Source: Caulobacteraceae bacterium UBA5005
GTDB taxonomy: Bacteria; Pseudomonadota; Alphaproteobacteria; Caulobacterales; Caulobacteraceae
Direction: 5' to 3'
Assembly: GCA_002398405.1 (NCBI GenBank)
Contig: DGYN01000062.1
Location: 6,746 to 70,745 of the forward strand
DNA length: 64,000 nt
Below, one piece after another: positions 29,206 through 30,419 of this stretch. Position numbers and translations under genes: made by a program. Within the stretch, counting starts at the first letter, position 1, and every line of letters starts with the position of its first letter. Below the pieces are notes generated by a model that saw nothing but the letters and a program-made list of their open reading frames with translations, searched no databases and was not told where the DNA came from.

Positions 29206-30162
29206 ATGGGCCTGCTGACACGCCGCACTCTTCTGGCCGCCTCCGGCGCGGTCCTCGCCGGGTGCGGCGGCGAGAGCGAACGCCCAGTCGCCTTCCTGAC
29301 CGTCACCCACGACCCCACGCGCGAACTCTTCAAGGCGGTGGACACCGCCTTTGCTGAAGAGCGCAAACAGAGCCTGGCCTTGCGCGAAAGCCACGGCCCC
29401 TCGGCCAAGCAGGCCCAGGCCGTGATCGAGGGACGGCTGGCCGACGCCGTGTGCCTGGCCACCGCCCACGAGGTCGATGCGATCGGAAGGGCCGGCCTGA
29501 TCAAGGGTGATTGGCGGACCCGATTGCCGGGAGGTTCGGTCCCCTTCACCTCGACCGTCGTGTTCCTGGTTCGAAGGGGCAATCCAAAGGCCATTGCCGA
29601 TTGGGACGATCTGGCCCGCCCGGGCGTTAGTGTAGTGATGAGCGATCCACGGACCTGCGGCGCCGCCCAATGGGCCTATCTCGCCGCCTTCGGCCACGGC
29701 GGCGCGGACTTCCTGCGGCCGCTCTACGCCAACGCCGCCGTCCTTCCGCAGGGCGCGCGGGGCGCGACCATGGGCTTTGTGAAGGGTGCACAGGATGTTC
29801 TGGTCGGCCTGGAAAGCGAGGCGCTGATGGCTTCGGAGGCCAACCGCGGCCGGTTCGATATCGTCCGGCCGCGCAAATCCATCCTCGCCGAACTGCCGGT
29901 CGCGCTGGTCGATAAGGTGGTGGAGCGTAAGCAGTCGCGCGAGATTGCGGAGGCCTTCCTGCGCTTCCTCTATGAGCCCAAGGCAAAGGACCTGATCGCG
30001 CGCCACCATTTCCACCCGCAAGGTCAGGCGCCGGAGGGGACGCTGCTCACCGTCGACGGTGATTTCGGCGGCTGGAACAAGGCCCACGCTGACCATTTCG
30101 CCCCCCGCGCCAGCTTCGACCAGGTCTATGTCCCGCCGGCGCCCGAGCCCAAGCCGGCATGA
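29206..30162 (+). CDS. Sbp/CysP-like periplasmic binding lipoprotein, diverged paralog (ligand unknown)
   Basis: 318 aa. Tat-like TRRTLL plus lipobox LAGC. It is colinear with the Sbp at 11046 (VTHDPTRELF, TSTVVFLVRRGNPK), but the anion-loop equivalents are changed (SHGPSAKQAQ, DPRTCGAAQW). RBS AGGGAG. Confidence 0.7.
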   Translation: MGLLTRRTLLAASGAVLAGCGGESERPVAFLTVTHDPTRELFKAVDTAFAEERKQSLALRESHGPSAKQAQAVIEGRLADAVCLATAHEVDAIGRAGLIKGDWRTRLPGGSVPFTSTVVFLVRRGNPKAIADWDDLARPGVSVVMSDPRTCGAAQWAYLAAFGHGGADFLRPLYANAAVLPQGARGATMGFVKGAQDVLVGLESEALMASEANRGRFDIVRPRKSILAELPVALVDKVVERKQSREIAEAFLRFLYEPKAKDLIARHHFHPQGQAPEGTLLTVDGDFGGWNKAHADHFAPRASFDQVYVPPAPEPKPA

Positions 30163-30419
30163 GCAGCCTGCTGATCAACGCCGTCGGAACCGCCGCGGGG
30201 CTTTGCGGCATCATCGGATTTACGCCGCAGATCGCCAAGATCGTCCGGGAGAAGGACGCCTCCTCCATCTCCATGAAGATGTACGCCGTGACGACGACGG
30301 GCTTTGTCCTGTGGGTGGCGTTCGGCGTCCTGCAGAAAAGCTGGCCGATCATCGCCTCGAATGGCGTCATGCTGGGTCTGGCGGCGACGATCCTGCTGCT
30401 GAAACTGCGCTATCGCTGA
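30159..30419 (+). CDS. SemiSWEET (PQ-loop/MtN3 family) 3-TM transporter
   Basis: 86 aa. Three hydrophobic helices and a PQ motif (GFTPQIAKIV). Its ATG overlaps the upstream stop (ATGA). Confidence 0.7.
   Translation: MSSLLINAVGTAAGLCGIIGFTPQIAKIVREKDASSISMKMYAVTTTGFVLWVAFGVLQKSWPIIASNGVMLGLAATILLLKLRYR

Follow-up and report, generated by a model that had tools for sequence, protein, structure and literature searches.

Organization of the locus

The window (the whole 64,000-nt stretch of DNA analysed here) carries on its plus strand, at 29206-30162, a diverged Sbp-family gene of 318 aa, recognized as an open reading frame (ORF) with a TIGR00971 match, and directly behind it, at 30159-30419 of the same strand, a SemiSWEET gene of 86 aa that matches NF037968 and PF04193. 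The stop codon of the first gene and the start codon of the second overlap in the sequence ATGA (30159-30162), and this SemiSWEET start at 30159 aligns with the SemiSWEET starts of genus mates. The minus-strand gene phoR (28011-29141; TIGR02966, 1.7e-81), encoding a soluble PAS-HisKA-HATPase kinase, lies head-to-head with the Sbp paralogue across a divergent intergenic region of 64 bp (29142-29205). Downstream of the pair are fadB/J and a thiolase gene, and no ABC permease or ATPase. In these points of gene order the initial annotation was confirmed. A single cysTWA operon, which includes a canonical sbp gene, lies at 11046-14832 on the plus strand (sbp-cysT-cysW-cysA) and is orthologous in two genus mates (CysT/W/A 75-81% identical, Sbp 63-64% identical).

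A 7,676-nt Logan contig that was assembled independently from the same groundwater sample covers 28000-30690 with zero differences; hence, the junctions of the locus are not an assembly artefact. The sequence was found in one groundwater DNA run, and three assemblies agree fully across 5-7 kb, with no polymorphism; no RNA run carrying the locus was found. Neither a sigma-70-like promoter match nor an Rfam match was obtained in 28900-30700, and a search for target-site duplications or IS ends flanking the Sbp paralogue returned only short chance repeats.

The product of the downstream gene is a PQ-loop SemiSWEET, as had been proposed, with 87.5 bits on NF037968 (SemiSWEET_2, cut-off 80) and a passing PF04193 match of 39.7 bits (4e-10), and it is 56-62% identical to its orthologues in the genus. 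The protein is conserved in the family, with Q24, W52 and N68 the same in all of 13 family sequences and P23 in nearly all; from published SemiSWEET structures we take Trp52 and Asn68 to be pocket-lining residues. A Kyte-Doolittle (KD) scan gave clear segments at residues ∼1-22 and 62-83, with the middle one under the threshold of 1.6, and there is no extra periplasmic segment.

The upstream gene encodes an Sbp-type protein

The 318-aa protein is a paralogue of the canonical Sbp of the window (11046-12068), with which it is 44% identical. It reached 266 bits on TIGR00971 (cut-off 155.5), fell just short of NF008022 with 279.5 bits (cut-off 288) and scored 116.8 bits on PF13531, compared with 433 bits on TIGR00971 and 452 bits on NF008022 for the canonical Sbp. 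The colinearity of the two proteins, which had been argued from shared motifs, holds, but one of these motifs, DPTRELF, is not found in the canonical copy, which has DPTRELY. The N-terminus, MGLLTRRTLLAASGAVLAGC, contains the Tat-type RR motif and the lipobox described before: as read from the translation of 29206-29265 (plus strand), a putative export signal comprises twin-arginine-like TRRTLL and then the lipobox LAGC, with Cys20 at 29263-29265.

An AF2 model of the paralogue had a pLDDT of 92.9, a value partly owed to the input alignment, which consisted of canonical Sbp sequences. In Foldseek comparisons this model matched 1SBP with TM-scores of 0.85/0.87 and an rmsd of 2.1 Å, and 5UM2 with TM-scores of 0.85/0.86. 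Thus, in the predicted structure the class II two-lobe periplasmic binding fold is retained and is superposable on 1SBP.

The paralogue is a singleton on a long branch. Its best non-self relatives by BLASTP among 5.8 billion proteins are 49-52% identical and all are ordinary Sbp, the highest alignment identity of any relative being 54%; among 1.84 billion representatives it forms its own 50% cluster, with the next best at 244 bits and 48% identity. The paralogue departs from 27 of the 106 columns with a conservation of at least 95%, whereas homologues depart from 1.4 on average and from no more than 6. In two maximum-likelihood trees its long branch was either basal or unsupported, with a terminal length of 1.42-1.91 against a median of 0.17-0.23 (∼6-10-fold).

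The ligand site is altered

Sulfate contacts in Salmonella Sbp are made by Asp11, Ser45, Ser130, Gly131, Gly132, Ala173 and Trp192, of which Ser130 and Trp192, the latter via its indole NH, are the sole two side-chain hydrogen-bond donors (PMC7177696). We aligned the paralogue to 1SBP numbering and compared it with 120 homologues. The position of Ser130 is taken by Cys151 (codon at 29656-29658, plus strand) and that of Trp192 by Leu202 (29809-29811, plus strand), positions that hold Ser in 118 and Trp in 119 of the 120 homologues, respectively. Cys at position 130 is absent from these homologues and from 112 wider 50%-cluster representatives, and Leu192 occurs in one other homologue/representative, there together with Phe130. 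Further replacements are Gly44 to Pro, Gly132 to Ala, Arg134 to Gln and Tyr10 to His, all at invariant or almost invariant positions (for Tyr10, Gly44 and Arg134 as judged from 119-120 homologues). The contact set is therefore incomplete, with 130, 132 and 192 altered and the backbone-donor positions Asp11, Ser45, Gly131 and Ala173 intact. Accordingly, the motif changes pointed out in the initial annotation are real, SHGPSAKQAQ and DPRTCGAAQWAY replacing the canonical segments, and the mapping agrees with its expectation that Sbp ligand residues are not conserved.

In the passage of PMC8754650 that cites He and Quiocho (1991), a Ser to Cys change at Ser130 of Salmonella Sbp is described as causing a dramatic loss of sulfate binding. 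Because both side-chain donors are lost, and Ser130 to Cys alone cripples the Salmonella protein, it appears from the alignment very unlikely that the paralogue acts as a high-affinity sulfate receptor, and we infer a loss of sulfate affinity. With its contacts at Ser130, Gly132 and Trp192 changed, we do not class it as a functional sulfate receptor.

Such a gene could also be a decaying relic, i.e. a functionless copy en route to loss, whose frame is still open as stop codons are rare at 66-68% GC and little time has passed. It is present in one species only, with sister species lacking it, both side-chain sulfate ligands are gone, near-invariant positions are substituted throughout the protein and are not clustered at the site, and GC3, at 0.815, lies a little below the 0.86-0.92 of neighbouring genes, all of which would fit with decay; moreover, long spurious ORFs are common in this DNA, e.g. 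the antisense 299-aa ORF at 29197-30096. However, the 318 codons contain no frameshift, although the branch amounts to 1.4-1.9 substitutions per site, and every deletion relative to Sbp is in frame. Signal peptide and lipobox are undamaged, GC1/GC2/GC3 still show their periodicity, 79 of the 106 near-invariant positions (75%) are retained, and by manual reading ∼12 of the 27 substitutions are conservative. We consider decay to be possible, although rather unlikely.

The opposite view is that the protein was retooled. In the pocket, His35, Asp36 and Cys151 stand in place of Tyr, Asp and Ser of Sbp, and the Trp is missing; a retooled, non-decaying paralogue might bind a non-sulfate ligand, such as a metal ion or a sulfur species that is thiophilic or carries less charge, and in this one lineage feed CysTWA or, as the boldest version, SemiSWEET. 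Changes are not significantly enriched near the ligand site (Fisher p = 0.17-0.5), so that the data do not establish a switch in specificity aimed at this site. Thus, of the earlier suggestion of a different ligand, the altered oxyanion site stands, but the change of specificity is only one possible reading, since substitutions run across the whole protein and are not focused on the site. We regard a retooled receptor of this kind as very improbable.

The pairing with SemiSWEET is not conserved in relatives

In three genus mates, phoR and SemiSWEET are direct divergent neighbours with 85-350 bp between them and no sbp inserted, and the order downstream is SemiSWEET, fadB and thiolase; with these three, the phoR-SemiSWEET arrangement was found in seven genomes. 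None of the 10 relatives that hold both an Sbp-like gene and a SemiSWEET has the two adjacent; the genes are separated by 834 kb or found on different contigs. The same was true for class-level genomes with SemiSWEET_2 and PF13531 (0 of 48), where no pair was within 9 kb among the matches listed, and no adjoining Sbp was seen at 47 further SemiSWEET loci, which were collected in a search based on a four-sequence alignment. The transport pair of a binding protein and a SemiSWEET that had been proposed for this locus thus has no counterpart in the related genomes surveyed, which by the criterion of the initial annotation itself speaks against a functional pair, and the Sbp subfamily whose co-occurrence with SemiSWEET was to be followed consists of one member.

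Elsewhere SemiSWEET has other partners upstream. The conserved one in Phenylobacterium and Caulobacter is a HisKA_2 histidine kinase, which lies directly upstream in Phenylobacterium-type loci, while a LOV kinase and receiver take this place in Caulobacter; in other genomes, a variety of unrelated genes precede SemiSWEETs and are coupled to them. Within Caulobacteraceae, SemiSWEET recurs as the final cistron after a HisKA_2 or LOV histidine kinase, adjoining phoR, and this kinase/phoR context is a better lead to SemiSWEET physiology than the Sbp copy. In the SemiSWEET context survey of Jia et al. (2018) the terms ‘binding protein’ and ‘ABC’ are absent, i.e. no such pairing is reported there, and no paper naming ‘SemiSWEET’ and ‘sulfate-binding protein’ together was found in the literature searched. 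Hence, a binding-protein/SemiSWEET system would be new.

In such a system the lipoprotein would take up a periplasmic ligand and pass it to the SemiSWEET dimer, like DctP in TRAP or TctC in TTT transporters. The ATGA overlap, which implies coupled synthesis, and a binding site that has shifted away from sulfate both speak for it. Nevertheless, besides the missing conservation of the adjacency and the singleton status of the binding protein, the SemiSWEET orthologues of genus mates work without one, the Trp and Asn pocket residues are unchanged from those common to the 13 family sequences, no added periplasmic segment is present, and SemiSWEETs of other genomes are coupled to a range of unrelated genes. 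We consider ligand hand-over to SemiSWEET very improbable.

An sbp gene near phoR and SemiSWEET is not unique to this genome. In Caulobacter radicis, C. zeae, C. endophyticus, C. hibisci and Caulobacter sp. D5, two canonical sbp genes are located by SemiSWEET and phoR-pst; this sbp pair is 1.8 kb upstream of the SemiSWEET orthologue, with lovK-lovR between, and ∼6 kb from phoR. By these five species, the vicinity of sbp to phoR and SemiSWEET occurs twice in the family, a point against a purely incidental position: the neighbourhood may go back to old synteny or may have been favoured by selection. Unlinked sbp genes are usual in Caulobacter. We weighed three origins for the paralogue, namely a duplicate of the genome's own sbp, an old positional relic and a foreign gene. 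Event counting favours a gain in the source lineage, and the relic scenario stays alive because of the position of the Caulobacter sbp genes. No sbp remnants were detected in the phoR/SemiSWEET gaps of relatives at E-values up to 10. As to foreign composition, the GC3 gap is too small to call.

The phoR adjacency goes with SemiSWEET, not with the Sbp paralogue

The Sbp paralogue lies head-to-head with phoR and 5 kb from pstCAB-phoUB, an operon without pstS, and a connection to phosphate had been conjectured on this ground. The lack of pstS in the window was borne out, but two PstS-family genes are present on other contigs (149.5 and 148.7 bits on PF12849), and a pst operon without pstS is also found in relatives. 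When the 64 kb were scanned for TGTCA direct repeats in 11-bp phase with up to three mismatches, Pho-box-like repeats were found at 23919-23947 only, in front of pstC, and none at this threshold in 29142-29205. Moreover, no 19-residue window of PhoR reaches a KD value of 1.6, i.e. it has no hydrophobic segment with which to meet a periplasmic protein. Judging from gene order in relatives, phoR is the ancestral divergent neighbour of SemiSWEET and not of the binding protein, so the conjectured link reduces to the older synteny of SemiSWEET. A Pho-regulon protein that binds phosphate, phosphite or another phosphorus compound in place of a local PstS is hardly credible for a paralogue that is Sbp-type and not PstS-type by sequence and predicted fold, in a phoR neighbourhood inherited by SemiSWEET.

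Discussion

We propose that the source genome gained an extra, species-specific sbp copy, which would have come to lie between phoR and a conserved SemiSWEET, in a short stretch that in the rest of the genus is their divergent promoter region. Because an orthologous sbp-cysTWA operon is already present, such a copy would be redundant and could evolve under relaxed or shifted constraint, while it probably still encodes an exported, folded Sbp-type lipoprotein. As the paralogue sits between SemiSWEET and what would be the old promoter of SemiSWEET, its location would be sufficient to explain both the co-transcription and the ATGA overlap, with no partnership implied. The 4-nt overlap does imply that both proteins are made from one mRNA in the source organism, which leaves a functional link with some probability. 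SemiSWEET alone would act as a small uniporter, as in relatives without the Sbp gene. No relative has the Sbp/SemiSWEET pairing; therefore, an accident of gene order is the most likely cause, and we consider it very probable that the adjacency is incidental. If the paralogue still delivers a ligand, CysTWA is the likely ABC partner: it would most probably be an orphan binding protein that docks on CysTW/CysA, encoded ∼15 kb upstream. Taken as a whole, i.e. a redundant diverged sbp copy, incidental co-transcription, lost sulfate affinity and partnership with CysTWA, this explanation is one that we favour, but only modestly.

The locus illustrates clearly how a redundant gene copy can diverge rapidly once it has landed in a divergent promoter region, and a natural Sbp variant with the classic Ser130 to Cys change together with Trp192 to Leu is a modest curiosity for work on anion recognition. 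The more reusable by-product is the recurrent HisKA_2/LOV kinase and phoR context of SemiSWEET in Caulobacteraceae. If the pair were functional, it would give a defined physiological partner for a bacterial SemiSWEET, and if ligand were handed over to the co-translated SemiSWEET, this would be the first binding-protein-assisted SemiSWEET.

Comparison with known systems

Compared with Sbp/CysP proteins (1SBP of Salmonella, 5UM2 of Xanthomonas citri), the paralogue is likewise two-lobed by prediction and colinear, with 44-46% identity, and its export signal and lipobox are like those of the canonical Sbp of the window. It differs by four shorter loops, by its score under the NF008022 cut-off, by the absence of adjoining cysTWA genes, and by a branch 6-10 times the family median with no orthologue anywhere.

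The 86-aa product is an ordinary SemiSWEET of the PQ-loop/MtN3 clan, like BjSemiSWEET1 and LbSemiSWEET, with the PQ motif, Trp52 and Asn68 present; what sets it apart from its relatives is solely the gene that precedes it.

In the Caulobacter neighbourhood, phoR, sbp and the SemiSWEET orthologue are within ∼11 kb of one another, and their relative order and orientation are those seen here. In contrast to the paralogue, the sbp genes of Caulobacter are of the canonical type (450-470 bits) and are the sole sbp genes of those genomes; Trp192 is found in both copies, and Ser130 in the proximal copy, with Gly in the distal one. Moreover, a LOV kinase and a receiver part sbp from SemiSWEET, and a porin O/P gene and an 1107-aa ORF part sbp from phoR.

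TRAP (DctPQM) and TTT (TctABC) systems would be the analogues of a functional pair, since there too a binding protein feeds a non-ABC transporter from one operon, and the pair would then be a third class of binding-protein-dependent secondary transporter, against which the evidence argues: binding protein and membrane genes of TRAP and TTT systems co-occur across thousands of genomes, whereas this binding protein and SemiSWEET co-occur in a single one.

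A diverged Sbp-family gene coupled to a SemiSWEET gene

The Sbp-family ORF at 29206-30162 (+, 318 aa) lies 64 bp from phoR (28011-29141, −), and its TGA overlaps the ATG of the SemiSWEET ORF at 30159-30419 (+, 86 aa). The 86-aa product scored 87.5 bits against the curated SemiSWEET_2 model (cut-off 80) and also passed the PQ-loop model. The paralogue scored 116.8 bits against PF13531, 266 bits against TIGR00971 (above the cut-off of 155.5) and 279.5 bits against NF008022 (slightly below the cut-off of 288), vs 433 bits for TIGR00971 and 452 bits for NF008022 in the canonical Sbp (11046-12068), with which it is colinear at 44% identity. 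An RR motif and a LAGC lipobox are present in its N-terminus, MGLLTRRTLLAASGAVLAGC. A fadB/J-type gene and then a thiolase gene lie 3′ of SemiSWEET, and on the upstream side of phoR are genes for an Alginate_exp-type outer-membrane protein and a TonB-dependent receptor, followed by pstC-pstA-pstB-phoU-phoB. A 7,676-nt Logan contig, the product of a separate assembly of the same groundwater metagenome, spanned 28000-30690 with zero differences, and JGI and Logan contigs were likewise identical to the window; thus, the gene arrangement is not a mis-assembly. ORFs, profile scores and independent contigs confirm the overlapping pair, head-to-head with phoR, described in the initial annotation.

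The sulfate site is altered

In the structures of Pflugrath and Quiocho, Ser130 and Trp192 are reportedly the only contacts made through side chains. The sulfate contacts in Salmonella Sbp are Asp11, Ser45, Ser130, Gly131, Gly132, Ala173 and Trp192 (PMC7177696). The site was mapped by phmmer alignment to the Salmonella structure 1SBP, whose numbering is used here, and by MAFFT alignment with 120 homologues. Asp11, Ser45, Gly131 and Ala173 are retained in the paralogue. Ser130 (Ser in 118/120 homologues) is replaced by Cys151, Trp192 (Trp in 119/120) by Leu202, Gly44 (Gly in 120/120) by Pro, Gly132 (Gly in 115/120) by Ala, Arg134 (Arg in 119/120) by Gln and Tyr10 (Tyr in 120/120) by His, so that the substitutions first noticed in the oxyanion loops are borne out, with six 1SBP positions changed relative to these homologues. 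Replacement of Ser130 by Cys caused a dramatic drop in sulfate binding, much worse than Ala or Gly, according to a passage in PMC8754650 on the work of He & Quiocho 1991. As the paralogue carries this Ser-to-Cys change, it is unlikely to bind sulfate with high affinity.

Divergence is general, with some constraint apparently remaining

The best non-self matches to the paralogue among 5.8 billion proteins (BLASTP) were 49-52% identical, all of them ordinary Sbp, and the maximum alignment identity to any homologue was 54%. When 1.84 billion representatives were searched exhaustively with HMMER, it formed its own 50% cluster, the next match scoring 244 bits at 48% identity. At 106 columns conserved to at least 95%, it is off consensus in 27, vs a mean of 1.4 and a maximum of 6 in ordinary homologues, and its terminal branch measured 1.42-1.91 substitutions per site vs a median of 0.17-0.23; two maximum-likelihood trees placed it on an unsupported or basal long branch. 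Within ±2 residues of the site 8/21 conserved columns were changed vs 19/85 elsewhere, and clustering around the ligand loops was not significant (p = 0.17); divergence is thus general and does not amount to a targeted change of the site. Between the window and the genus mates (L094, L095), identity is just 63-64% for the canonical Sbp, vs 75-81% for its operon partners CysT, CysW and CysA, and this Sbp also lies on a long branch (0.79-0.91), so both sulfate-binding proteins of this genome evolve unusually fast.

Decay of the paralogue towards loss is a possible, if doubtful, reading of this divergence. Even so, the gene has the look of a coding sequence under some constraint: it aligns colinearly with Sbp end to end, its deletions are all in-frame and fall in four loops, 75% of near-invariant positions are retained, roughly 12 of the 27 substitutions count as conservative when judged by eye from the list, and the GC1/GC2/GC3 pattern and the signal peptide are intact. 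Canonical Sbp sequences formed the input alignment of the confident AF2 model (pLDDT 92.9; TM 0.85-0.87 to 1SBP and to 5UM2, the Xanthomonas citri Sbp), so that the model alone is weak evidence.

On balance we lean towards a redundant sbp copy that would have diverged under relaxed or shifted constraint, its product still exported and folded, with high-affinity sulfate reception lost. The paralogue would be transcribed from the former SemiSWEET promoter region, so that both proteins would come from one mRNA through position, not function. Scans of 28900-30700 gave neither a riboswitch nor a sigma-70-like promoter. Should the paralogue still hand over a ligand, CysTWA, encoded nearby, would be the obvious acceptor; in Caulobacter an unlinked sbp is the normal state.

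The Sbp-SemiSWEET adjacency is not conserved

The initial annotation had also raised a new transport pair, and its check, adjacency across related genomes, was set beforehand and came out against a functional pair. The window derives from a Caulobacteraceae MAG. In the genus mates G001, G002 and G003 (records labelled 'uncultured Brevundimonas' or 'Caulobacteraceae bacterium'), a SemiSWEET orthologue (56-62% identical) is directly divergent from phoR across a gap of 85-350 bp, with fadB and thiolase genes 3′ of it in two of the three, matching the window. No Sbp gene or remnant was detected at this site in any of them, and their only sbp belongs to an sbp-cysTWA operon, the orthologue of 11046-14832 in the window. 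Ten of 40 relatives hold an Sbp-like gene and a SemiSWEET, on separate contigs or 834 kb apart. SemiSWEET_2 matches occurred in 68 of 400 class-level genomes, 48 of which have PF13531 matches too; among the matches listed, which include all strong Sbp-like ones, none lay within 9 kb. Moreover, Sbp adjoined SemiSWEET in 0 of 47 further loci from GTDB genomes. A true SBP-assisted SemiSWEET, of which we found no report in the literature searched, would be new, and a single, non-conserved instance gives it no support; we regard it as very improbable.

phoR and SemiSWEET form an old synteny

In five Caulobacter species, genes for two canonical Sbp, a LOV histidine kinase bearing the GRNCRFLQG motif, a single-domain receiver and SemiSWEET lie on one strand, the start of SemiSWEET overlapping the stop of the receiver. 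The sbp pair (450-470 bits) are the sole sbp genes of those genomes; both encode Trp192, with Ser130 in the proximal copy and Gly in the distal. Divergent phoR-pstC lie ∼6 kb past this pair, separated from it by a porin O/P gene and an 1107-aa ORF. In Phenylobacterium-type loci a sensor-less HisKA_2 kinase gene (215-235 aa) ends 0-19 nt before SemiSWEET, in one case immediately beside phoR, and in two other genera phoR is followed by a small unrelated ORF and then SemiSWEET. Thus, phoR...SemiSWEET is an old synteny in Caulobacteraceae, a HisKA_2 kinase recurs as the operon partner of SemiSWEET, and SemiSWEET readily becomes coupled to any gene that happens to be upstream.

The SemiSWEET orthologue repeatedly occupies the final position of an operon, after a HisKA_2/HWE histidine kinase gene (L068/L087 of Caulobacter radicis, L070-L072 and L074; Phenylobacterium-type L040, L043, L047, L048, L056 and L063), and this conserved operon, unlike the Sbp pairing, may be the better clue to the role of SemiSWEET. 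In L087 the porin-sbp-sbp-lovKR-SemiSWEET cluster is flanked by ORFs at 13556-16879 (−, 1107 aa) and 6166-7284 (−, 372 aa), without a Pfam match, which may be real novel genes or high-GC artefacts.

Four or more Caulobacteraceae genera share the divergent phoR-SemiSWEET adjacency (G001-G003, G007, G019, a Phenylobacterium MAG and L075). When the window (28011-30419) was compared with L013-L015, L018, L020, L048 and L075, the gap proved variable, being empty or holding a small unrelated ORF, a kinase or, in the window, the Sbp copy; that of G003 contains a ∼300-nt inverted-repeat element. The Sbp copy may have survived as a relic from a Caulobacter-like arrangement, or may have arrived independently in a gap that accepts other insertions too; event counting favours a gain in the window's lineage. 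Neither origin implies a working partnership with SemiSWEET.

Phosphate and sulfur neighbourhood

That the paralogue is a Pho-regulon binding protein, the phosphate connection first suggested beside phoR, is hardly credible: the only Pho-box-like repeats in the 64-kb window, three phased TGTCA units at 23919-23947 (−), precede pstC in the pstC/TonB-receptor divergent intergenic region, with none in the 64-bp gap, two PstS-family genes lie on other contigs of the genome, and PhoR lacks a hydrophobic segment and so has no sensor domain for a periplasmic lipoprotein to touch.

In the genus mates (L013-L015, compared with 20332-28004 of the window) phoR comes directly after phoB-phoU-pstB; the window has pstA, pstC and the genes for the TonB-dependent receptor and the Alginate_exp-type protein between pstB and phoR, so that either this block was inserted in the window or pstCA was relocated in the relatives. 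In L088 (Phenylobacterium sp. SCN 70-31, 3863-10105) a TonB-dependent receptor gene is directly upstream of sbp-cysTWA, its product 68% identical to the window's receptor (24077-26545), which hints that the latter may be tied to sulfur, not phosphate, acquisition.

Comparison with the wider Sbp family

Altered sites are no rarity in the wider Sbp family: Ser130 or Trp192 is missing in 42 of 112 full-length 50%-cluster representatives, among them what looks like a CysP-type group with Asn132/Phe192, and Cys130 occurs in 0/112. We therefore place the paralogue inside the Sbp family as a new variant, in a one-off gene arrangement.
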